Source: Escherichia phage vB_EcoP-ZQ2
Direction: 5' to 3' (one strand)
Sequence record: NC_070874.1
DNA: 64,000 bases
A model generated the notes under the pieces. It saw only the letters and a list, made by a program, of their open reading frames with translations. It did no database searches and was not told where the DNA came from. Numbering within the stretch: the stretch's first letter is position 1; every line of letters starts with the position of its first letter. Of the stretch, positions 157 to 64,000 are shown in pieces. The position numbers and the translations under genes were made by a program.

Positions 157-846
157 ATGAGTGAACTAACTAAGCAGCAGATTATTAATGCCTTACCTGC
201 TAACTTCAAAAACAGTGTGACCCAGGAGTTGGTAGACACAATTAACAACATAACCCAAGACCAACTAGTTGCTGAGTCCTTTCGTGAAAACTTTATCTCC
301 TACTCTGGTGTAATGAAGGAAGGTAAGTTTAAGACACAGGACTACATGAATGCAGTTCAGTATGTAACTTATAAACATATGGGCTACTCAAATAAGGAAG
401 CCTACTTCAAAACATTCCCCAACCGACAAGCAGAACTTGTTGCACGAGGAACCAGTGAGAAAGATATTAGTGCTTATGTATCTGCTTACCACAGGGGTAA
501 GTTAGTTAACCTCATCATGGAACAAAGTTTGGTTCCAGTGTGGATTGTGAACCAAGACAATTATCAGAAGGCAATCAACGTTCAGGTTGAACTGATGACT
601 TCAGCAGCAAGTGAGAAAGTAAGATGTGATGCAGCTAACTCTATCCTTACTCACTTAGCTAAGCCAAAGGACCAGGTAACGAATATCAATCTGGACTTAA
701 GAGAGAACTCCGGATTAACTGACCTCAAGGCAACACTTGCTGCATTAGCTGAACAGCAGATTAATGCAATCAATAGTGGTGTACCTACTAAAGAGGTTGC
801 TGGTTCTAAACTAGTACGAGCAGATGAGGACATTACAGATGTCTGA
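157..846 (+). CDS. hypothetical protein immediately upstream of terminase large subunit (N4 gp69-like position; possible terminase small subunit)
   Basis: 229-aa ORF overlapping the terminase ORF by 23 nt; function assigned by gene order only. Confidence 0.45.
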   Translation: MSELTKQQIINALPANFKNSVTQELVDTINNITQDQLVAESFRENFISYSGVMKEGKFKTQDYMNAVQYVTYKHMGYSNKEAYFKTFPNRQAELVARGTSEKDISAYVSAYHRGKLVNLIMEQSLVPVWIVNQDNYQKAINVQVELMTSAASEKVRCDAANSILTHLAKPKDQVTNINLDLRENSGLTDLKATLAALAEQQINAINSGVPTKEVAGSKLVRADEDITDV

Positions 847-2428
847 GTTAATTAAACAGGAACTAGATGAATGGCTAGACCAGGTGGATTACTCCCACCT
901 AAACTCTTCCAACTATGTTCCCAGTCAGTTTGCTCTTACCTTTGCTAACTTTATTAAGTTGGTTAATGGCAAAGAGGGTGAGTCCAACAAAACACCTCCG
1001 GTTCACTTAAAGATGCTGGATAAAATGATTAGTCCGAACCAGTACGTAGTTAACCTATGCTTCCGTGGTGCAGGTAAGACTGCTGTATTCATGGAATACT
1101 TTACATTGTTTCTGGCAGTGTTCGGTCACTTACCTAGCTTGGGTAAAGTAGAAGGAATGATTTACGTATCTGACTCAATGGATAACGGTGCTAAGTCTGC
1201 ACGTAAGAACATTGAGTTCCGTTACAAGAATAGTGAGTTCCTTCAGCAATGGATACCTGAAGCTACCTTTACGGATAACCTATTAGAGTTTCGTAATGTA
1301 GAAGGGCATCGACTCGGAGTTAAGCTGTTTGGTGCTAAGACAGGTCTTCGTGGTACGAAGATATATGGTAAACGCCCAACACTTTGTGTACTGGATGACT
1401 TGATTAGTGATGGTGATGCTAACTCCAAGACGAGTATGGAAGCTATTAAAGATACTGTCTATAAAGGTGTGAACCATGCTCTTGACCCTACCCGTCGTAA
1501 AGTAATCTTCAACGGTACTCCCTTTAATAAGGAAGATATTATCATTGAAGCAGTTGAGTCTGGTGCATGGGATGTAAACGTATGGCCCGTTTGTGAGAAA
1601 TTCCCGTGTAGTAGAGAAGAATTTCAGGGTGCATGGGATGACCGTTTCTCTTACGACTACATCAAAGCCCAATATGACATGGCAGTTAAGACCGGTAAGC
1701 TGGCAGGTTTCTATCAGGAACTTATGCTCCGTATTAGCTCTGAAGATGAGAGACTGGTTCAGGATAGTGAAATAAGATGGTATAGCAGACAGCAACTATT
1801 AAAGATGAAGTCCTGCTATAACTATTACATTACAACTGACTTTGCTACATCGGAGAAACAGACCAGTGACTATAGTGTCATATCAGTTTGGGCTTATAGT
1901 TCTAATGGAGATTGGTTCTGGGTTGATGGTGTGGCTAATCGTCAGCTTATGGATAAAAACTTTGATGACCTGTTCCGTCTGGTTCAGGAATACCAACCAC
2001 AAAACGTTGGGGTTGAAATCACAGGACAACAAGGTGGATTCATCTCACTTCTTCAGAAGGAAATGATTAACCGTAATGTCTTCTTTAACTTTGCATCCTC
2101 TGTGGGTGGTAAGCCAGGCATCCGTCCTGTAACCTCTAAGCTGTCACGTTTTAACCTAGTAGTTCCATGGTTCAAAGCTGGTAAGATGTACTTCCCGGAA
2201 GAGTTGAGAGATTCAACTATTATGGGTCTGTTCATGGGCCAGATTAAACTAGCTACCATTAACGGAATAAAGGGTAAGGATGACTGTATTGATACTATCT
2301 CCATGCTGGGTTATCTCAATCCTTGGAAACCACAAGCAGGTATGACTATGGTGGATAACAAAGGTGACCCAATGTGGGATGATGAAGAAGAAGATAGTGT
2401 TAACCCACTACGTTCATACATTGTGTGA
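824..2428 (+). CDS. terminase large subunit
   Basis: 534 aa; Walker A-like GAGKT and Walker B-like VLDDLISDGD; size and position typical of podophage TerL. Confidence 0.8.
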   Translation: MRTLQMSELIKQELDEWLDQVDYSHLNSSNYVPSQFALTFANFIKLVNGKEGESNKTPPVHLKMLDKMISPNQYVVNLCFRGAGKTAVFMEYFTLFLAVFGHLPSLGKVEGMIYVSDSMDNGAKSARKNIEFRYKNSEFLQQWIPEATFTDNLLEFRNVEGHRLGVKLFGAKTGLRGTKIYGKRPTLCVLDDLISDGDANSKTSMEAIKDTVYKGVNHALDPTRRKVIFNGTPFNKEDIIIEAVESGAWDVNVWPVCEKFPCSREEFQGAWDDRFSYDYIKAQYDMAVKTGKLAGFYQELMLRISSEDERLVQDSEIRWYSRQQLLKMKSCYNYYITTDFATSEKQTSDYSVISVWAYSSNGDWFWVDGVANRQLMDKNFDDLFRLVQEYQPQNVGVEITGQQGGFISLLQKEMINRNVFFNFASSVGGKPGIRPVTSKLSRFNLVVPWFKAGKMYFPEELRDSTIMGLFMGQIKLATINGIKGKDDCIDTISMLGYLNPWKPQAGMTMVDNKGDPMWDDEEEDSVNPLRSYIV

Positions 2429-3145: not shown

Positions 3146-6100
3146 ACGCACATACCCCCTTTGATGCAAATCAGGATTGGTCTAATCCTTACTGTCAGAA
3201 CAGTTCCAATGATCCTATGGTAGATGCACTACTTGGTAATGCTTACCATGTGGTTCGAACTGTTTACTGTAACTTGGGTAACCTGAAACTTATCTATGAC
3301 TTCCTTAACCAGTATGGAATGGTACTTGGTGTACAGTCTGAAGCAGAACTTAAAGCACTAACAACCAAAGCTAAGTATGCACGTATCTATGGATTCTCTC
3401 GTGCAGGTGACCGTCAGGTAACTGACTACCTGTATGTGGAAGGTGATCGTACGGGTATTATTCCAGACGATCCAAAGGCAACCGGTTCGTGGATTACTGT
3501 TGCTACTTCTGGTTCTAATAGTGGTGGTACTTCCTCTGGGGAAGGTGCTTATATTCCTTGGGTATACGACAATGGTTCTGCTGCTGGTGGGGAAACCACA
3601 ATCAACGTACCAGATGGTACGGTAGGTGTACCTTTTATCATTATTAATGGGGATATGCAGTATGTAGGACGTGGCTTTGAATTTAATGCAGATAGCCTGT
3701 CGGTAACTCTGGCTCAACCTCTGGAAGAAGGTGATGAGGTAGTATTCCTTCTGACTGGAGTTCCTGCTGTACCAGATAATCCTAACGTTAATGACTGGGT
3801 TCAGATTAACTGGTTATATAACAATGGTGCTGCTATAGGTGGTGAGCAGGTTATTGCTATCCCTTATACCTTCCAGTCTGTTCCTGCTGTGTATAAGAAT
3901 GGGCTTCGTTTGTATAAAGGATTAGCTACTGAGTCATATACTGCTGACCCGGATAACCAACGTATACTTCTTACAGAACCACTGGCAACCAATGACCGGC
4001 TAATTGTGCAGATTGGTGGTGAAGCACAGGTACTGGAAACAGCAGACCATACCCTTCAGGAAGTTGCTCGTGCTACTAACGTTAAGGATAGTGAGGTAAT
4101 TCTTAGTACAGATACTACCCAGTTCCTGAATAATAAGAAGGTTATTTATTCTGTTAGTGAGCAGAAAGCATATGGATTACCTGTACTACCAACTAACGTA
4201 TTCATTCAGTCTGTAAGCAATGGCAAGTTAATTTACTCACCTGGATCCATTGAAGTAGACCTAATCCCCGTACCCAATTCTGCAGAGAGTTTGGAACAGG
4301 CACTGTCAGCTGAAAATGGTGCATCGTTGATTGTAGATAAACTCCCGTATGCTGGAGCAGTACCAAGAACCCAGCACGATATAAATTCACAATTTAGTAA
4401 TATTCTTGACTTTCTAGGCGATGGGTATGATGGCACTACGGATGCTGCAGGAGCCTTTATCTCTGCCAACACACTCGTTCCGAAAAGTAGAGAGATTGTT
4501 GTTCCAAGTGGGGTGTATCTTCTCAATAGTGACGTGGATTGTTCCGGTCGCCGTTTTACATTTGAGGAGCCTGTGACATTTACTGGTATTGGTAAGTTCT
4601 ACCGGGCTATTGTCAATAGAATTATGCCGGATGGAACAACTCGGGTTTCTCAGTGGGCCAAACCAGGAACTACCGAATATATGACGGCATCTGCTGTTTT
4701 CGGTGACAATGGGGCTACAGCAACTGGCATTCAGATTGGTGGAGCTGTGCCATACAATGGCACAGATGGTGTCATGATGTTTACCGATGGTAGCTCTGGG
4801 TGGTTAGGTGTTCGTGCATCTAAGTGGCCCCACCCTACGGAAATGGCGATATATCCAAGCTCTAAAGCTGGGTCATGTCAGACAATCTCAGGCAGTAATG
4901 CTGTAAAAAGACTGTCGGGTGCTAGCATTACGGCTGAAGCGATTGGGAAACCAATTTCCATCTATGATTCCCTATATACCATATCGACCATAACAGCAGA
5001 TGGTTTTACTGTTAAGAATATTAATGGAACACCCGTTACTTGGGGGTCAACGGCAACTCACTCATTCATTTTATGCTATTACAATGGTAGTGGTTTGTGC
5101 AGCGTATCTGGTACTACTGTGACACGTATTAGTGGCGACCCATTTGTAATTCCTGACCCGACAGTACCACAAACAATGACTATAAACGGTATTGACTACC
5201 GTGTAGTGTCTTTTACAGACCCTCAACATGTTACCCTTAATTCTGCTCCAGGGGATTCAGCGTTAACGGAATATAAATTCTGGGGCACAGTCAATAGCCT
5301 TAACTCTGCTCTTAGGATTCATCGACTCAATGCTGCTGGGTTTGAGGAAAATATTAGTCTCATTGCTAATAATGCTGGCTATTTTGCATTACACGCCGCA
5401 GCTGGTAACCCAGCCAATGAGCAGTATCCAATCTATATTGGGTCAGGTTGGGAAGATAACGGACAGATGCGTAAGAGTATTATCTCTGCAGGTAATGGAG
5501 ATGTAACTCTTGGTGGGGGTTATGGAAATGGGCCGTTATACGTGCCATATAATCAAACATCTGGCCGCCCGCAAGTCATGGTGGATAACAGTACGGGTAC
5601 AGCCACCATTTCGTCTACTGGCGGACCTACTCCGGATGCATCGTTAGCTATTAAAGCTAAGGGTACAGGTAGGGTTGTGTTTCACTCCGAGGTCGGGGTT
5701 AACGCTGCGATATACCCCTACATAGATAACGTTTATTCATGCGGTCAATCCGGGAATAGGTGGTCACAGATATGGGCATCGAACGCCACCATCCAGACTT
5801 CTGATGGGACGACAAAAACTGCAGTTCAAGCATCCGACTTATCTACAGACTTTATTCTTGGTCTAAACCCTGTTTCTTATAAGAACATTGTCGGGGGAAA
5901 TGTTGTAGAAGAGGTTGAAGATGGCGTAGAAGAAATTGAACGACAAGTGGTAGAAAAAGTTACTTCTTCTGAAGAAGTCCATGAACGCGTTGTTGATGGT
6001 GATGAAGTCTACTACGTTCGCAAGTTTGTTAACAAGGAAGTAGAACGACCAGTATTTCATGATGTTGAGCTGCGTGACGAGCTTGGCAATGTCATTGGTA

Positions 6101-34872: not shown

Positions 34873-34946
34873 TACCCACTACTGGATTTGAACCAGTGAC
34901 TTTCCAATTATTAGTTGGTTGCTTTCCCCGTCTAAGCTAAGTGGGC
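34873..34946 (-). tRNA. tRNA, 74 nt, anticodon read as AAU (Ile-type, atypical A34)
   Basis: hand-folded cloverleaf: acceptor GCCCACT/AGTGGGT (one G-U), D-stem GCTT/AAGC, anticodon stem CCAA/TTGG with loop CTAATAA, T-stem ACTGG/CCAGT with loop TTCAAAT, discriminator A. Confidence 0.6.
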
Positions 34947-36031: not shown

Positions 36032-36529
36032 TTATCTCCCATGGCGTAAGGTGTAGTTGTGATTCTTTACCAGGTCTGCTTCTATAGTAGCCCGGTATGC
36101 TATAGCAGCATCTTTGGCTTCGCTATCCCCAAGAACACCAATGTTGAAGCTTTTAGTTCGTAGCTTACCTGTATGCGGATCATTCCAAGCAGCAGTCCAA
36201 TATTCGTTGGTCTTCTTCCATTGTCTATACACACCGGTAGTGCCTGATGTATTGTCACTTCTTTTGCGACGATTGCGACAGTTAATCATATGGGACACTA
36301 GTCTCATATTAATAAGTCGACAATCGGTTGGGATTCCATTGATGTGGTCAACTTCATACCCATCCGGGATTGGTCCATTATAGTATTCCCAAATCCAGTT
36401 GTGCAGAAATACCCTCACCCCATGACGTTTAATACGGATGTACCCATCCTTTGCATTGGCATCATCGGGAGAATGTACTACAGCGAGTTCATGGGCAGGT
36501 TTATTCCAGTATCCTAATGGCTTGCTCAT
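36032..36529 (-). CDS. HNH homing endonuclease (HNH plus AP2-like DNA-binding region)
   Basis: ...YEVDHINGIPTDCRLINMRLVSHMIN...TSGTTGVYRQ... typical free-standing phage HNH. Confidence 0.75.
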   Translation of the reverse strand: MSKPLGYWNKPAHELAVVHSPDDANAKDGYIRIKRHGVRVFLHNWIWEYYNGPIPDGYEVDHINGIPTDCRLINMRLVSHMINCRNRRKRSDNTSGTTGVYRQWKKTNEYWTAAWNDPHTGKLRTKSFNIGVLGDSEAKDAAIAYRATIEADLVKNHNYTLRHGR

Positions 36530-38596: not shown

Positions 38597-39349
38597 TTAA
38601 GCGTAGTATTCAGCCAGATGGTCTAAGAGTTTCTGGGCATCGTTATCAATGTAAGTCTCGGACTTATCAAACATACCCATTGGGGAACGAAGTCGTTTAC
38701 CAACCGACTTCTTAGTTGGACGGGTTTGGAATACGTGCTTATATCCTAAGTCACGTTCTTCTTCCGTAATTTCAAGCATCTTGTTTCCATACTTCTCCAG
38801 TTCTTTAATGTCTACACGCTCTGCATAAACCACTGTAGAGAAGTAGGCTTCAAGCCCGTTATTTTTAAGAGAACCTTTTACTGGGATGAATGTTTTCATC
38901 ACACCGGCAGCTTCATCAAGTTCGTCTTTAGCATGAGCAGTAATGATTACTGGCTTACCAAACTTAACGACTTTCTGTTGCAGCAGTATCTTAAAGAACT
39001 GTGCAAAATCCCCCCATGCTTTCTGCGTGTTTGCAGAAGGCAATACGTACTGGGATTCCAGCATATCCATCATGAAGGTTGCTGAGTCAATGATGATACC
39101 ATCAACATCATCTGCCATTTCTCCACCAGGAGATGCAACATCAAATGCTTCCCAGATTTGATACGGGTCTTCAATGTTGTAGGTATTGAACTTGTTACGG
39201 AAAGGCAGACGCTTACCTGCTTCAGTATTCAGATAGAGCCAGCGTTCCTGGTTCCTGATGTTACGCAGTGATGCTGATTTACCACTCGCTGAGAATCCTG
39301 CAATCAGGATTAGCTGAGTGTTAATATCATTGGGAATTACTTCGGACAT
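38597..39349 (-). CDS. P-loop ATPase (RecA/Sak4-like family candidate)
   Basis: Walker A GFSASGKSAS near N-terminus; 250 aa. Confidence 0.5.
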   Translation of the reverse strand: MSEVIPNDINTQLILIAGFSASGKSASLRNIRNQERWLYLNTEAGKRLPFRNKFNTYNIEDPYQIWEAFDVASPGGEMADDVDGIIIDSATFMMDMLESQYVLPSANTQKAWGDFAQFFKILLQQKVVKFGKPVIITAHAKDELDEAAGVMKTFIPVKGSLKNNGLEAYFSTVVYAERVDIKELEKYGNKMLEITEEERDLGYKHVFQTRPTKKSVGKRLRSPMGMFDKSETYIDNDAQKLLDHLAEYYA

Positions 39350-39405: not shown

Positions 39406-41559
39406 TTACTTGCCAGCGAAGCGTTTAGCCACGGTGACCATTACGGTTGCATTCAATTCATCATCTGGTAATGGATTAGCCAGTTTCTTATTGAATGAGT
39501 GGACGGCTTGCTGTACTTGGGCAAAGTCCCAACCACTGTCAACCAATGCCAGTGCGTACTTAATCATTTGATTATTACGATTACCGGTAGCAATACGACT
39601 AGCGAACCAACGCTCCAGATTATCCAACGACTGTACTTCCTTCATCTGGTTCCGGAACTGCTCGTTCTTACTAGTACGAGGAATAAAGTCACGCACGTCC
39701 AACAGATTTGCTTCAAGATTGTAATGATAGGAACCAGTCTCACAGGACATCCATTTCTTGGCTCGTTGGTTAGCAGATTCATCCGTTTCGAACGGTAGCC
39801 AAGACATAACGTTATTCATGAACTCTTTGTATTCCTCGGTGTCGAGGTGTAACTCATAGTTCATTGGAATAATCAGTCGGAATCGGTTCTCTTCATCAGA
39901 ATGACGCTTAGTGGTATAGGTCATGAACTTATATTCCTTCATCAGTTCATGGCACGTATGCAGTGGTACTCCACCATCACAGTCAATAACAATCATGTTA
40001 AATCCTGGAATAACGTTCTCTTCGGAACGATGGCCATTTTTCATGTGATGGTTTACCCAGTGCATACCGGGAGCTTGGGTTAATACATGCAACTGGTCGA
40101 ACGGTACACGTTCACCAATGTAGTCATAAGCAAAGCTATCACTATATGCCACTATCATCTCATTGATGTCAGTCTCTTTCAGAGTTTCCCCACGGAAGAA
40201 CTCAATACCTTCATTGAAGGTTTTCTTAATGATGATGTGCTGTTTGTAACCCCATGCTGTAGCAAGGGTCATCATCTCATTACGGGCTGCATTACCACTC
40301 TTATAGAACGGCAATGACTCCAACAAATCAGCATGAGTCACTTCTTTACCTACAGAGGCAATGTACTTAGCCAGCTTCACATAGGCTTTCTCACGATTGA
40401 GAATACCCTGGAATGCTGCCCCGGATTCCTCTACAAGCAGGATTGCTTGTTTAAGGTGAGACATCTCAATGAATGAACTCTGGTCAACAAATGCCAGTGC
40501 CCCAGCCAGTTTAAGTGCTTTGAAGTAACGGTGTTTTATTTCATTTTTACGGATTTCTTCATGGTCTGACATAGCTGCTGCTTGTTTATCACAGTCAACT
40601 TTATAGGCCATTGCTGCAATGCCTACATCGTCTTCTACAACCATCCTATAACCGAATAAGTTTGGGTCAGCTAAATCATGAAATTTATTTGCCCATTTAC
40701 TAACAGTAATATTGTTATCCGTTTTAATGAGATTTCTGTAAATTTCTTCTGGAGTCATACTCACAAAAGCTTGTTGGTCTACTTGACCAATTGCAAATAA
40801 GCAACGGCGAGCATAACCAGTATCCAGAAAATCATAGAATTGGTCTTCGATTTGACCACCATCTAACAGCTTACTTGGTGTACCAAAAAGTAGCAGATTA
40901 GTAGGAGTCTTACCGTCCAGTTCTTCCCCTCGCTGGCTCTCGGCAGTGTTCTTGGTCAGCTTCTGTTTAACCTTACCCTGGTCATATAATTCCAGGAACA
41001 GAGTTAATACGTCTGTGTTGGCCAACAGGTTTGAACCAATTTCATCAATCTGAAGGTTGATTGAACCACACCCAGCCATTAACAACTTGTGACGTAATTG
41101 TTTAACTGCTGGTGGAGTACCAGAGTCAAACGTAAACGGATATGCCCCAGCACGTTTATATTCTGCTTCAACTTTATCAAACTCATCATTCTGGTCTGTA
41201 CCCTGACGAGCAGCACGTTCGTTGGCAATCTTCCATAGGCGGTCATTTGCAATGACGGGCATGGTGTCTTCCATAAAACGTTTACGGAATCCAGACATAA
41301 ACCCGTCTTCAATGATATTTACTGAGTGACCTTTACCGAAACCAGATGTAGCCAACGCAATAGCGTAGATGTTTACCGGCAGGTCACCACGGTCTTTAGT
41401 TACAATGGTTGCACCCATGCAGGATGCCATTTTAGCCAAGAAGTAGGCTACTTCGACACGGAAAAATCCCCGGTCATTATTCTGGGTTTTATTGCAGAGC
41501 ACATCTACGATTTCTTCAATCGCCGGATGGTGACTGATGCCAGTAAGGTCGATACTCAT
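39406..41559 (-). CDS. putative DNA primase (N4 gp43-like position)
   Basis: 717 aa in replication module between SSB/ATPase and DNA polymerase; functional call by synteny and size. Confidence 0.45.
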   Translation of the reverse strand: MSIDLTGISHHPAIEEIVDVLCNKTQNNDRGFFRVEVAYFLAKMASCMGATIVTKDRGDLPVNIYAIALATSGFGKGHSVNIIEDGFMSGFRKRFMEDTMPVIANDRLWKIANERAARQGTDQNDEFDKVEAEYKRAGAYPFTFDSGTPPAVKQLRHKLLMAGCGSINLQIDEIGSNLLANTDVLTLFLELYDQGKVKQKLTKNTAESQRGEELDGKTPTNLLLFGTPSKLLDGGQIEDQFYDFLDTGYARRCLFAIGQVDQQAFVSMTPEEIYRNLIKTDNNITVSKWANKFHDLADPNLFGYRMVVEDDVGIAAMAYKVDCDKQAAAMSDHEEIRKNEIKHRYFKALKLAGALAFVDQSSFIEMSHLKQAILLVEESGAAFQGILNREKAYVKLAKYIASVGKEVTHADLLESLPFYKSGNAARNEMMTLATAWGYKQHIIIKKTFNEGIEFFRGETLKETDINEMIVAYSDSFAYDYIGERVPFDQLHVLTQAPGMHWVNHHMKNGHRSEENVIPGFNMIVIDCDGGVPLHTCHELMKEYKFMTYTTKRHSDEENRFRLIIPMNYELHLDTEEYKEFMNNVMSWLPFETDESANQRAKKWMSCETGSYHYNLEANLLDVRDFIPRTSKNEQFRNQMKEVQSLDNLERWFASRIATGNRNNQMIKYALALVDSGWDFAQVQQAVHSFNKKLANPLPDDELNATVMVTVAKRFAGK

Positions 41560-42071
41560 TTGATTAATCCTACGCTCTTATTAGTGACGGCATATTCTCC
41601 GAAGTATTTTACGGCAGCTAAGTCATACGCTTTGGCTGCTTCAATTGCTTCCAGGAATACACCTAAATGAATTGATTTACGGTTTACTTTGATTTTGGCT
41701 AAGTAGTTACCCCTGAACTTAGTAACACCCATAAAACCACTGGTATTGTTTTTATTCAGTCCACGGTTAGCACCATTGGTGCTTTTATCCGCTTCTCTTA
41801 GATTGTCTATCCAGTTGTGGTGACGTATGGTGTCTTTATGGTCTATTAAACCAGTAGGCCACATACCGTACACGTACAACCAAGCTAACCTATGAGCAGC
41901 TTCCCGTTTGGAATCAACTGTTATGTAGAGATAACCGTCACTGTTATTGAGCGACCCAGCAACACTACCGACAGGTGTTCGGTTACTGAGGGAGATGCGG
42001 CGAGTAAATATCCCAGTAAGTGGGTCATAATGCAGCAACTCTTTTAGCCGTTGCTGAGTCAGCTTAATCAT
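41556..42071 (-). CDS. HNH homing endonuclease (free-standing)
   Basis: ...HRLAWLYVYGMWPTGLIDHKDTIRHHNWIDNLRE...TSGFMGVTKF...; start set to the ATG forming an ATGA overlap with the upstream stop; stop also forms ATGA overlap with primase start. Confidence 0.7.
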   Translation of the reverse strand: MIKLTQQRLKELLHYDPLTGIFTRRISLSNRTPVGSVAGSLNNSDGYLYITVDSKREAAHRLAWLYVYGMWPTGLIDHKDTIRHHNWIDNLREADKSTNGANRGLNKNNTSGFMGVTKFRGNYLAKIKVNRKSIHLGVFLEAIEAAKAYDLAAVKYFGEYAVTNKSVGLIK

Positions 42072-43048
42072 GATGGAAAATATCTCTCTCTTTGTTTGCA
42101 AATGGACGCGACAGGGCAGTATAGACAACGCTTAACCTGCCCCTCCACGACCTTGATAGCACCCTTGCCACCTTTTTCAGCCATGAAGATACGAGCAGAT
42201 GCCATATCGTCAAAGTTTTTAGTACTTCTGGCTCCAGGTACATCTACCTTAGAAGCATCAGAGAAGTATTTGAACTGTGGTTCTGTTCGCCACAACTCCT
42301 CGTCAGTACATTCAGGAATTTCCTCTTCAGGTGCATTCCAATACTTCTCAATGAGGTGAATCTTCTCTTCTACCCAACGTTCAGTCTTATCGACAGACAG
42401 CAACGGAATATCCTTATGCATAATACGATTAGCAGGATAGTTCGGATTGCTATTAGCCATATGCTTCATGAAGTCAGTGAAGATGTAGTTAATACGGATT
42501 ACATCCTCGGTAATGATGTCGTTGTGAATCCAACGGTACAAGCTGCCTTGCATCTTGTGTTCATCATCACGGGAACCAGCAACCCAGGAATAGGTTGAGG
42601 TGGACTTAAAGTCTTGCAACAGACCCTCTGTTACGATGTCGAACTTACCACCGATAGTCCAACCCTTAACTACCCTGGTTCCACGCTGTTCAATGTAGAT
42701 TGGGATAAGGTCAGGGTTAGCATCAAAGTCTGCTTTGGTTGGGTTAATGACTACTGCATCAATTACTCGCTGGGAATAACCTAGCTTCTTCAATGCAGTC
42801 TTATGACCCAGCTTCCAGGCTTTCTCGATAGAATCATGTAAACCAGTACCCATTGATGTGGAGACAAAATCCATAACATCAATTGACTGGTCACTGAGGT
42901 CTACACGATGTTTCATGACGATTTGCTTAATAGGCTTAAGCAATGTGGTAACAGACAGGTACTTAGGATTGTCTACGTAATCATACTCATCATGTAGTAG
43001 CCATACAGCCAGAGCCAGTGAGACATCATGATTGTTGGTTATCTTCAT
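42068..43048 (-). CDS. PD-(D/E)xK-family nuclease with C-terminal Cys cluster (Cas4/RecB-like exonuclease)
   Basis: 326 aa; C-terminal ...RCLYCPVASICKQR... cysteine cluster; position next to DNA polymerase. Confidence 0.5.
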   Translation of the reverse strand: MKITNNHDVSLALAVWLLHDEYDYVDNPKYLSVTTLLKPIKQIVMKHRVDLSDQSIDVMDFVSTSMGTGLHDSIEKAWKLGHKTALKKLGYSQRVIDAVVINPTKADFDANPDLIPIYIEQRGTRVVKGWTIGGKFDIVTEGLLQDFKSTSTYSWVAGSRDDEHKMQGSLYRWIHNDIITEDVIRINYIFTDFMKHMANSNPNYPANRIMHKDIPLLSVDKTERWVEEKIHLIEKYWNAPEEEIPECTDEELWRTEPQFKYFSDASKVDVPGARSTKNFDDMASARIFMAEKGGKGAIKVVEGQVKRCLYCPVASICKQRERYFPS

Positions 43049-62438: not shown

Positions 62439-63532
62439 AGAGAACTCTTGCCCCAGTACCTGAGACAGGATGAAGCCCAGCAAGTCACTCTTAGCAATGT
62501 CAGATAGAATCTGATTGTACTGACGACGCAGGTCATTACCGTAGTTAGGATGACATCTAAAACCATTAGTTAAACGAGTCGTTAGCTCGCCCTTACCTTC
62601 CATGATTAACATGGAAGCCATACGTAGCATCTGCTTCTTTACGAGCAAGCATTGCCTCCTCAAGTGTGTCATACGTACCCAGACCAATCTGTTTACGATT
62701 GACTGTGATGTGTGCCTGGAATCTACCAGAAGGCAATATTCTTACACCATTCACTTTGCTTGATGTATTACGTGATAAACCCATATTCATCTGGTTCTGT
62801 CTACTGGTTACATTTCTCAGATTAGACCAACGGTTGTCGTTTCTAATGTGATTGATGTGATCCACCTGGTTAGGTGTTTCCCCTGTTTCCATTATCCAGA
62901 TTATTCGATGCAGTAAGTACTCTTTACGACCCAGACTAACAGATAAATAGCCTTCTTTGTGAGGATACCCCACAATTGTTCCGGCTAATCCACTAGCAGA
63001 GTCGAAACGATGAGTTACTAGCCCACTTTCTCTGTCATACCTTAAAACCTTCTTCAAAGATTCTCGGGTAATGGTATCCAAGTCTTTTATCAGGTTCTTA
63101 CAGGTAGGGCATAGGTGGCCTATTGGACTCTTTTTAGCATCATAGAAGTTGCAAACAAACTCATTAGAGCATTGCTTACAACTACAGATAGCTGTGTACT
63201 TACCAGTTTTACGTAATATTTGGGAGTTATCTAACATATGGATTCCTTAGTAATTTTGCATACAATTTCAGATTGTATCCTAACCAAGGAAGTAAGTCTC
63301 CGGTTTTCACCGGAGTATCGGACTATATCATCACCCACTAATCAGTGGGGCAAGGCGCTTGGGTGGTCACTTGACTCACCTACTCTACTCACATACGAAA
63401 TGTTTTCGATAGTCTCTGAACCTTCCCTCATGGAGGGCTTGGCTGCTGATTGGCATATCCATAGGACTTAGCTTTCCAGCAATTCACCTTGTTTTCGACA
63501 CGGATTACTCCGTGAAGGATCATTTATGTTTA
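62439..63532 (-). mobile_element. group I intron with HNH homing endonuclease ORF, inserted in the RNA polymerase gene (boundaries approximate)
   Basis: on minus strand in order: P2-like GNRA hairpin (63499..63514), P element GAATTGCTGGAAAGC (63471..63486), Q CCAATCAGCAGCC (63441..63453), R GGTTCAGAGACTA (63407..63422), P8 hairpin (63334..63349), S GATATAGTCC (63320..63329), P9 hairpin (63298..63315), then HNH ORF. Confidence 0.7.
62593..63237 (-). CDS. intron-encoded HNH homing endonuclease with N-terminal CxxC zinc-finger-like motifs
   Basis: ...YLSVSLGRKEYLLHRIIWIMETGETPNQVDHINHIRNDNRWSNLRNVTSRQNQMN...; CSCKQC and CPTC at N-terminus. Confidence 0.75.
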   Translation of the reverse strand: MLDNSQILRKTGKYTAICSCKQCSNEFVCNFYDAKKSPIGHLCPTCKNLIKDLDTITRESLKKVLRYDRESGLVTHRFDSASGLAGTIVGYPHKEGYLSVSLGRKEYLLHRIIWIMETGETPNQVDHINHIRNDNRWSNLRNVTSRQNQMNMGLSRNTSSKVNGVRILPSGRFQAHITVNRKQIGLGTYDTLEEAMLARKEADATYGFHVNHGR

Positions 63533-64000
63533 ATCATGTACAGTCATTACAGGGAATGGTTTCTTAGGCAGAGTGTCAATCATATCTGCTACTACCTTAC
63601 GGTCTACCAATGCAATGGTATTCGGGTCAAGGTAGTCCAGAATAGACAGTGACAGGAACCCAGACTTCTCATAATGACTCCAAATTTCCATAGTCATTTC
63701 CTGGTTCCCTGCGATAGCAGGATAATTGCTTGGCCCGATATCACATAGTTCACGTACATAGGCAACCAGTTTAGGGTCGAAGTTACAACGACGCAGCATC
63801 TCACGTACCACCATCCCATCAATAGAGTGAGTGATGTTAGCAGAGAGCATACGGGTCTTTTCTTCAGTACCCTGAACCATACGAGTGATGTCAAATGGTT
63901 TACCTAAGAAGTTAACAGTCTGTACTTCAGGAACCATGACCTTAATGACAGCGTGGAAGTTGTCAGGAAGTACCCATACGTAACGGTTGGCATCCGGATT
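63530..64000 (-). CDS. T7-like single-subunit RNA polymerase (N4 RNAP II large subunit-like), 5' exon, truncated by window edge
   Basis: frame open to window end; ...YVWVLPDNFHAV... and ...ITHSIDGMVVRE... resemble T7 RNAP ...HWVTPDGFPVW... and HSQDGSHLR/HDSFG regions; in-frame stop at 63530 is at the proposed 5' splice region. Confidence 0.55.
   Translation of the reverse strand, partial: NPDANRYVWVLPDNFHAVIKVMVPEVQTVNFLGKPFDITRMVQGTEEKTRMLSANITHSIDGMVVREMLRRCNFDPKLVAYVRELCDIGPSNYPAIAGNQEMTMEIWSHYEKSGFLSLSILDYLDPNTIALVDRKVVADMIDTLPKKPFPVMTVHD

Follow-up and report, generated by a model that had tools for sequence, protein, structure and literature searches.

A predicted HNH endonuclease gene of Escherichia phage vB_EcoP-ZQ2 (sequence record NC_070874.1) lies between the exonuclease and DNA primase genes and shares four nucleotides with each of them, which raises the question of whether it is a mobile element that has inserted into the replication module or a settled part of that module. 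We analysed the gene within a window of 64,000 nucleotides (nt) from this record and compared it with a collection of 50,697 phage records. We regard it as very probable that it is a free-standing HNH-AP2 homing endonuclease gene (HEG) specific for the exonuclease/primase junction of G7C/N4-like (Enquatrovirinae) phages. The gene is already known as an HNH homing endonuclease, its orthologues in five deposited genomes being annotated as ‘HNH homing endonuclease’; what the present comparison adds is comparative evidence of mobility, a candidate target of ∼30 nt and natural near-isogenic pairs of carrier and non-carrier phages.

The distribution of the gene is sporadic. A megablast search with the exonuclease–HEG–primase region matched 60 records, the best of them with 94.5% nucleotide identity; the collection did not include the phage of the window. 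The full query was not covered in 53 of the 60, and among the matches listed 33 of 33 lacked the 513 bp of the gene; the HEG-less relatives listed match the query as two pieces with a coverage of ∼75%. Members of the protein family were found by tblastn in 2,987 phage records, of which only seven, representing five phages, hold orthologues with more than 60% identity (all other matches fall below 60%). The copies in PhAPEC5, PBM-2, PBM-3 and UE-M6 share 98% amino-acid identity with that of the window, and the copy in Shigella virus Moo19 (genus Moovirus) shares 81%. In all five carriers the gene is at the exonuclease/primase junction, encodes 171 amino acids and has the same ATGA overlaps as in the window. 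Phages without the gene have an intact empty site, reading ...CCATCATGAGTAT..., in which the exonuclease stop still overlaps the primase start (...CCATC-ATGA-GTAT...); in UE-S5a and St11Ph5 this junction reads ...TTTTCCATCATGAGTATTGACCTTACCGGAGTAGTGCATCATCC.... The insert thus measures 513 bp exactly, or 171 codons, and is flanked by a 4 nt ATGA repeat, which is extended to 7 nt (ATGAGTA) in Moo19 and in the metagenomic contig L022. The initial annotation had described a selfish element inserted tightly into the replication module and had proposed a comparison of related genomes at this junction. The comparison gives a homing-type pattern, with five carrier phages, listed HEG-less relatives that keep the empty site, and a precise block that is either present or absent; a gene found in all relatives with dead catalytic residues would have looked quite different, and here the gene is sporadic and its motif residues are intact.

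The overlaps are where the initial annotation had placed them, to the nucleotide. The exonuclease gene ends in ...TTTTCCATC-ATGA, its TGA (42070..42068) being shared with the ATG of the HEG (42071..42069), and the TGA of the HEG (41558..41556) is shared with the ATG of the primase in the sequence ...ATCAA-ATGA-GTATC. The arrangement itself is unremarkable, as the window has five minus-strand gene pairs with ATGA coupling and the same ATGA is found in HEG-less relatives. Because the empty site already has this overlap, the insertion, to judge from the alignment, duplicates a pre-existing coupling signal rather than creating something unusual. A longer form of the gene starting at TTG 42128 (190 amino acids), as in the PhAPEC5 record, was rejected in favour of ATG 42071: the homologues align from the methionine at 42071, and the 57 extra nucleotides belong to the end of the exonuclease gene, a conserved sequence that is identical in HEG-less phages.

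The open reading frame (ORF) is, on these comparisons, a real gene and not a chance ORF, since the protein matches the Pfam model HNH_3 and PHROG_99 (‘HNH endonuclease’; E = 1.5e-65), has 695 homologues in a database search and gives a ratio of nonsynonymous to synonymous substitution rates (dN/dS) of 0.14 against the Moo19 orthologue. The flanking essential genes give values of 0.07–0.09, and the HEG is likewise under purifying selection. The match to HNH_3 (PF13392) covers residues 58–100 with 41.5 bits (cut-off 24.8, E = 1.1e-10). The motif reads H60 ... D77-H78-K-D ... N86 ... N90-L-R92 ... N99 ... N102, and all conserved residues of the HNH_3 signature (D-H ... N ... N-L-R ... N) are kept. 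When the protein was aligned with 49 diverse homologues (44–80% identity), His60, His78, Asn86, Arg92 and Asn99 were invariant among the 50 sequences, and Asp77, Asn90, Leu91 and Asn102 were conserved in at least 90% of them. A profile made from the alignment matches the sequence of the I-HmuI crystal structure (PDB entry 1u3e) with E = 5.5e-8, and the DHKD, NLR and distal asparagine positions are aligned. By analogy with the structure of I-HmuI, the histidine of D-H (D77-H78) would be the general base, with a structural asparagine (N86/N90) and a distal Asn/His (N99/N102). The AlphaFold2 model of the protein has a pLDDT of 96.6 and shows the β-β-α fold. The HNH nuclease proposed in the initial annotation is thus borne out, with a score above the cut-off and the motif intact.

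The last 70 residues match the AP2 domains of WRI1, TEM1 and ERF096 (E = 2.8e-8 to 0.017), and the Pfam AP2 model scores under its gathering threshold. An N-terminal HNH core and a C-terminal AP2 domain are found within one polypeptide, as in the HNH-AP2 class, and we describe the protein as an I-HmuI-like HNH nuclease with an AP2 DNA-binding domain, for which nuclease activity is predicted. The β-rich N-terminal region likely contacts DNA as well, by analogy with I-HmuI. A confidently folded AP2 domain also brings to mind a DNA-binding regulator, in which the HNH part would be merely structural and the protein would act as an anti-defence repressor in the manner of the CasPR anti-CRISPR repressors; phage AP2 proteins can indeed silence the transcription of host defence genes (bioRxiv 10.64898/2026.02.23.707548). 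The CasPRs, however, combine CapR with AP2, lack HNH and were described from Bacillota prophages (same source). The motif residues of HNH are invariant across the HEG family, and a site-specific insertion polymorphism with linked conversion of the flanks is not expected of a regulator, so that we find this explanation scarcely credible.

Another possibility is that the gene has been domesticated as a replication or recombination accessory, an HNH nuclease that helps the exonuclease or the primase, for example by processing intermediates, for the benefit of the phage. Its purifying selection, its close fit, with coupled translation signals, within the replication operon and its retention at the same junction over a long divergence could all be read in this way. 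Against this, ∼90% of close relatives do without the gene, near-isogenic partners included, and genomes of this type hold paralogues elsewhere, at further junctions as well as within a group I intron, which is typical of selfish HEGs; the AP2 domain is moreover sequence-specific and not structure-specific. A domesticated role is accordingly rated as very improbable.

The flanks carry further information on how the gene came to its present positions. An alignment from exonuclease to primase was made of the window, the four other Gamaleyavirus carriers, Moo19 and 11 non-carriers. Of 3,135 flank positions compared 646 are polymorphic, and the fixed differences that separate carriers from non-carriers number just five; each of them is in the primase gene (nt 9, 18, 21, 22 and 26), and four are common to Moo19. 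Such a cluster arises in one of the 4,368 permutations of the carrier label (5 of 16 Gamaleyaviruses), namely in the true carrier set. The same short region stands out between near-isogenic phages: PBM-3 differs from the HEG-less UE-S5a at positions −124, −54 and −35 and then at 11 positions within +9 to +36, and beyond this patch the primase genes of PBM-3 and UE-M6 show 0 differences from that of UE-S5a over ∼2,100 nt. Differences in the near-isogenic comparison are therefore confined to −124 to +36, which is the kind of HEG-linked flank polymorphism that co-conversion would leave. At the protein level the patch reads G-I-S in the window and G-V-V or G-V-T in HEG-less phages. We consider primase nt 9–36 to be a candidate recognition or cleavage region, a candidate minimal co-conversion tract, or both. 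A synthetic query consisting of a HEG-less junction with the carrier-type patch matched 80 records; the matches of at least 97% were carriers only, interrupted by the insert, and among the 53 uninterrupted junctions listed none had the carrier-type patch (best match 93.8%). The sequence ACCGGAG, which all HEG-less Gamaleyaviruses have, fails as a simple target motif, as the HEG-less Klebsiella phages KP8 and JZBo1 have ACTGGAG.

The carriers are not a clade. The flanks of PBM-2, PBM-3 and UE-M6 are nearest to those of the HEG-less UE-S5a (PBM-2 and PBM-3 being near-identical to it in the exonuclease/primase region), those of PhAPEC5 are closest to the HEG-less PhAPEC7, and those of the window are nearest to St11Ph5, ECBP1 and pSb-1, a third background apart from the other two. 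Within Gamaleyavirus the gene thus occupies at least three unrelated backgrounds, and it is also present in Moovirus. Among carriers the HEG has a nucleotide identity of 98.2–98.4%, compared with 94–95% for the exonuclease gene and 89–90% for the primase gene, of which the first 300 nt are 97–98% identical. The reverse is seen in the metagenomic contigs L022 and L023, in which the exonuclease is 99% identical at the amino-acid level to that of the window and the HEG is only 80% identical. Over the last 100 nt of the exonuclease gene these contigs have 100% nucleotide identity to the window, which drops to ∼78% at the HEG start and is 70–83% from there on, so that the break coincides exactly with this start; in the primase gene the identity is 84–90% over the first ∼300 nt and 94–96% afterwards. 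The history of the HEG is therefore discordant with that of the flanking genes, as horizontal movement would have it, and the gene marks a sharp break in relatedness, a boundary of genetic exchange, between otherwise near-identical phages. Taken together, these patterns are what an active or recently active HEG with short, primase-biased co-conversion tracts classically leaves behind. The junction is also occupied in much more distant N4-like contigs, whose exonuclease and primase are ∼50% and ∼67% identical, by HEGs with 62–69% identity; spacers of 9–14 nt take the place of the overlaps there.

The primase gene of the window has other divergent parts. A second patch (listed in Table 1) is 68–85% identical to L022, as against 94–100% on either side, and nt 341–1100 are 17–19% divergent from all of the Gamaleyaviruses compared. 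This points to further mosaicism within the primase gene, with no obvious tie to the HEG.

The expression signals around the gene suggest how it may be accommodated. A stretch of purines, GAGAGAGA, precedes the HEG ATG by 11 nt. All relatives share it without change, and in those that lack the HEG it is spaced equally from the primase ATG. At the other end, the primase ATG is preceded by an AGGA from the 3′ end of the HEG, which takes the place of the purines found there in HEG-less phages and is conserved in PhAPEC5, PBM-2/3, UE-M6 and Moo19 (TAGGATTAAT). The HEG may thus have taken over the coupled start of the primase and brought a replacement, by which primase expression would be kept and the cost to the phage would be low. 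A scan for σ70 promoter-like and terminator-like sites, the promoter part of which is blind to N4-type (middle) promoters, gave none at either HEG junction; there were four promoter-like hits in the scan compared with a mean of 9.7 in shuffled sequences and seven terminator-like hits compared with a mean of 2.6, and 0 of the seven were at a junction. A hairpin that sequesters the ribosome-binding site, as in some T4 HEGs, was likewise not found at either start, both start regions being less stable than shuffled sequences (z of +1.3 to +1.7). Translational coupling and marker exclusion, both of which the initial annotation had raised, are what we infer from these data: they would be consistent with the ATGA overlaps, with the junctions free of promoter-like or terminator-like sites and with the short HEG-linked conversion tracts.

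Several observations weigh against an active homing gene, and some of them would equally suit an immobile or decaying remnant that entered once, long ago, and became patchy through precise deletions at the ATGA/ATGAGTA repeat and ordinary homologous recombination. Presence and absence taken alone fit repeated precise loss as well as repeated gain, and the direct repeat of 4–7 nt at the ends of the insert (ATGA, or ATGAGTA in Moo19) is a microhomology that could mediate such loss. Orthologues at the same junction across a deep divergence, with the HEG about as divergent as the primase, also fit a long vertical residence. Our literature searches found no cleavage, nicking or homing experiments on this protein or its orthologues, and hence no experimental activity data. 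The HEG-linked patch could have been carried along by co-conversion without being the recognition site, and its C18T change is also found in HEG-less Klebsiella phages, so that the exact target is not readable from the alignment. Finally, translational coupling is deduced from the arrangement of the codons, and the blindness of the promoter scan noted above bears on the proposed expression of the gene. On the other side, a remnant would not be expected to have a dN/dS of 0.14 and every motif residue intact, nor to be 98% identical across carriers whose flanks differ by 5–11%, nor to have an allele that is discordant with its flanks from exactly the HEG start. Carriers always share the patch at primase nt 9–26, including those whose primase gene otherwise matches that of a HEG-less phage exactly, and deletion should have left this patch in some HEG-less phages, which was the case in 0 of the uninterrupted junctions listed from the 80 records matched. 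We therefore consider a remnant to be improbable.

The homing endonuclease that we favour would act as follows. In a mixed infection the enzyme would bind the junction of a HEG-less genome through its AP2 domain and N-terminal sheet, the likeliest target being the first dozen codons of the primase gene, and would nick or cut there. Recombinational repair off the HEG-bearing genome would then copy the gene together with a short flank, which would span about −124 to +36 nt and at times reach as far as ∼300 nt into the primase gene; the recipient would be converted and its local markers excluded. The altered 5′ sequence of the primase gene probably makes the carrier immune to cutting. Presumably having no promoter or terminator of its own, the HEG would be co-transcribed with the replication operon and probably translated by termination–reinitiation at the ATGA taken over from the primase, and by supplying a new AGGA and ATGA it would leave primase translation coupled at a low cost to the host phage.

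How does this gene compare with known systems? I-HmuI of Bacillus phage SPO1 (PDB entry 1u3e) nicks DNA and has a C-terminal part that is helical, with a helix–turn–helix DNA-binding element and not AP2; it differs from the window HEG in lying inside a group I intron, whereas the latter is free-standing and carries AP2. Among the HEGs of T4-type phages the Seg enzymes are of the GIY-YIG type and MobE is an HNH enzyme not known to carry AP2, and T4 HEGs are usually expressed from promoters of their own, with regulated translation; the window gene, in contrast, is of the HNH-AP2 type and ATGA-coupled on both sides. It resembles SegG, SegE, SegF and MobE in being an intergenic selfish nuclease gene between essential genes (a reference on SegG is listed in PMC10448857). 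Such free-standing HEGs spread by cleavage away from the insertion point, with co-conversion of flanking markers and marker exclusion. The asymmetric short conversion tracts found here fit this model. The HNH-AP2 class comprises known homing endonucleases of phages, cyanobacteria and protists, named ‘IPA-HNH’ in Vibrio phage ICP1 (PMC10448857); that paper credits the original description of the class to Magnani et al. (2004). HNH-AP2 HEGs have been described near replisome genes in phages, and phage nucleases generally at boundaries of genetic exchange (PMC10448857). The IPA-HNH of ICP1 (gp59/gp209) is accordingly similar in its HNH and AP2 architecture, its free-standing position beside replisome genes and its occurrence at exchange boundaries; it belongs to another phage family and has another target site, and the two are likened here by architecture and setting. 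For members of the class we found no mapped cleavage site in the literature. That ORFs related to homing endonucleases vary among G7C-like phages has been remarked on before (bioRxiv 10.1101/542787); the literature on PhAPEC5, Gamaleyavirus, G7C and N4-like phages otherwise gave generic mentions, and no paper that analyses the exonuclease/primase HEG junction was found.

Table 1. Positions of the HEG, its parts and signals, its neighbours and other features (positions are those of the window unless a contig or genome is named).
Feature	Position	Strand	Basis or remark
Free-standing HNH-AP2 HEG	41556..42071	-	171 codons + TGA; ORF, Pfam, PHROG
ATGA, exonuclease stop/HEG start overlap	42068..42071	-	Exonuclease-stop/primase-start overlap in HEG-less phages
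ATGA, HEG stop/primase start overlap	41556..41559	-	Second copy of the 4 nt boundary repeat
N-terminal β-rich region, residues 1–57	41901..42071	-	Precedes the HNH motif
HNH (ββα-metal) nuclease core, residues 58–102	41766..41900	-	HNH_3, homologue alignment, I-HmuI profile match
C-terminal AP2-type DNA-binding domain, residues ∼109–164	41580..41747	-	Three-stranded sheet and helix
HEG-linked substitution patch, primase nt 9–36, codons 3–12	41524..41551	-	Fixed differences, near-isogenic pair
Purine run within the 3′ end of the exonuclease gene (11 nt before the HEG ATG)	42083..42090	-	Putative function
AGGA, Shine–Dalgarno-like, in the HEG 3′ end (8 nt before the primase ATG)	41568..41571	-	Putative function
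Exonuclease, N4 gp42 homologue, PD-(D/E)XK-like, 326 amino acids, upstream of the HEG	43048..42068	-	PHROG_2139
DNA primase, N4 gp43 homologue, 717 amino acids, downstream of the HEG	41559..39406	-	PHROG_2135
Annotated HEG orthologues			PhAPEC5 gp49 (YP_009055554), PBM-2 47, PBM-3 36c, UE-M6 036, Moo19 gp58
gp41/gp42-junction paralogue	L015 (G7C) 3992..4489; L009 (ECBP1) 857..1354; L004 (Bp4) 854..1351		
Second divergent patch in primase	40480..40980	-	
Group I intron	63298..63541	-	Rfam RF00028, 91.8 bits, E = 3e-22
Phage RNA polymerase ORF	63530..63937		PHROG_2051 positions 206–339 of 401
HNH_3 and AP2 ORF after the intron, 214 amino acids	62593..63237	-	34% identical to the HEG
HNH_3 and AP2 ORF, 165 amino acids	36032..36529	-	HNH_3 E = 3.5e-17, AP2 E = 2e-6, PHROG_99 E = 3e-35; 30% identical to the HEG
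gp41 homologue, short form, 94 amino acids	43026..43310	-	
DNA polymerase, 859 amino acids	43612..46191		Uninterrupted
gp44 homologue	38597..39349		Uninterrupted
HNH ORF splitting DNA polymerase	L022 (Logan SRR35014788 contig) 620..1162		
tRNA gene	34873..34946	-	Rfam RF00005, 62 bits
ORF of 3,611 amino acids	22625..33460	+	

Both neighbours of the HEG are recognizable from their profiles. The upstream gene matches the PHROG_2139 ‘exonuclease’ with E = 4e-151, and Pfam PDDEXK_1 matches only below its threshold (E = 0.004); the downstream gene matches the PHROG_2135 ‘DNA primase’ with E of about 0 and PriCT_1 with E = 9.4e-7. Their equivalence to gp42 and gp43 is taken from the annotations of relatives. 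Two further statements of the initial annotation can be settled here. The N4-like context is confirmed, the matching records being those of G7C-like phages and their relatives (Schitoviridae, Enquatrovirinae), and we assign the window, from its matches, to the genus Gamaleyavirus of these coliphages. The gene is also free-standing, as proposed: it is situated between two complete genes, and the sole Rfam match to a group I intron in the window is far from it. An intron-encoded or intein-encoded HEG was considered and rejected, as both flanking genes are complete and share 4 nt overlaps with the HEG and there is no intron nearby.

The intron lies directly downstream of a phage RNA polymerase ORF and is followed by an HNH_3 and AP2 ORF. 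The locus resembles the RNAP2 (g16) gene that an intron is reported to interrupt in some G7C-like phages (bioRxiv 10.1101/542787). With the 165-residue ORF at 36032..36529, the third to combine HNH_3 and AP2, the window has three members of the HEG family.

A closer paralogue (51% amino-acid identity), of the same family and architecture, is known as gp41.1 in G7C, ECBP1_0048 in ECBP1 and orf42 in Bp4. Like the window HEG it is sporadic and ATGA-coupled to the exonuclease gene, and it differs in being at the other end of that gene, at the gp41/gp42 junction. It is present in G7C, ECBP1, Bp4, PD38, Mimir124 and others; none of the genomes examined has both of the HEGs that flank the exonuclease gene. 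In the window this paralogue is absent and the gp41 homologue overlaps the exonuclease start directly. The gp41 homologue is of a short form, as it is in Moo19, pSb-1, Bas96, Moonfish and L022/L023; a long form of 155–158 amino acids occurs in St11Ph5, G7C, PBM-3 and PhAPEC5. With two forms of gp41, another module swap adjoins the exonuclease gene.

Other replication genes are interrupted in some relatives. In L022 an HNH ORF splits the DNA polymerase, the DNA polymerase of PhAPEC5 is also split by HNH (annotated as a 672 bp intron), and the gene for the gp44/Sak4-like ATPase is annotated as two joined pieces in PhAPEC7 and Bas96. The window has uninterrupted forms of both genes. The window also contains a tRNA gene close to where the plus-strand gene block gives way to the minus-strand one and an ORF of 3,611 amino acids, which by its size and position is presumably the giant virion RNA polymerase, an N4-like hallmark.

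The gene is by itself of little weight, being one more, ordinary, free-standing HNH-AP2 gene. In practice it is useful as a clean test system provided by nature, in which UE-M6 (carrier) can be set against the near-isogenic UE-S5a (non-carrier), two phages that were isolated on the same host (UPEC PSU-5266; PMC11927229). With a candidate target of ∼30 nt in the opening codons of the primase gene, the specificity, the nick-versus-break chemistry and the marker exclusion of the HNH-AP2 class would become measurable. The case also shows that such elements drive local mosaicism in the replication genes of coliphages that are therapeutic candidates. A wider idea, which we put forward tentatively and think rather doubtful as it stands, is that the exonuclease/primase junction of Enquatrovirinae-type phages is, jointly with its competing HEG alleles, a long-lived ‘homing arena’. 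If so, a single HNH-AP2 lineage would have tracked the same site over several genera (62–98% amino-acid identity), and at least three alleles that are ∼80% identical (the window, L022/L023 and Moo19 types) would replace one another, each bringing its own immunizing version of primase codons 3–12. The alleles would then compete with each other and not only with the empty site, with the by-product that ∼300 nt at the beginning of an essential primase gene would keep being rewritten.

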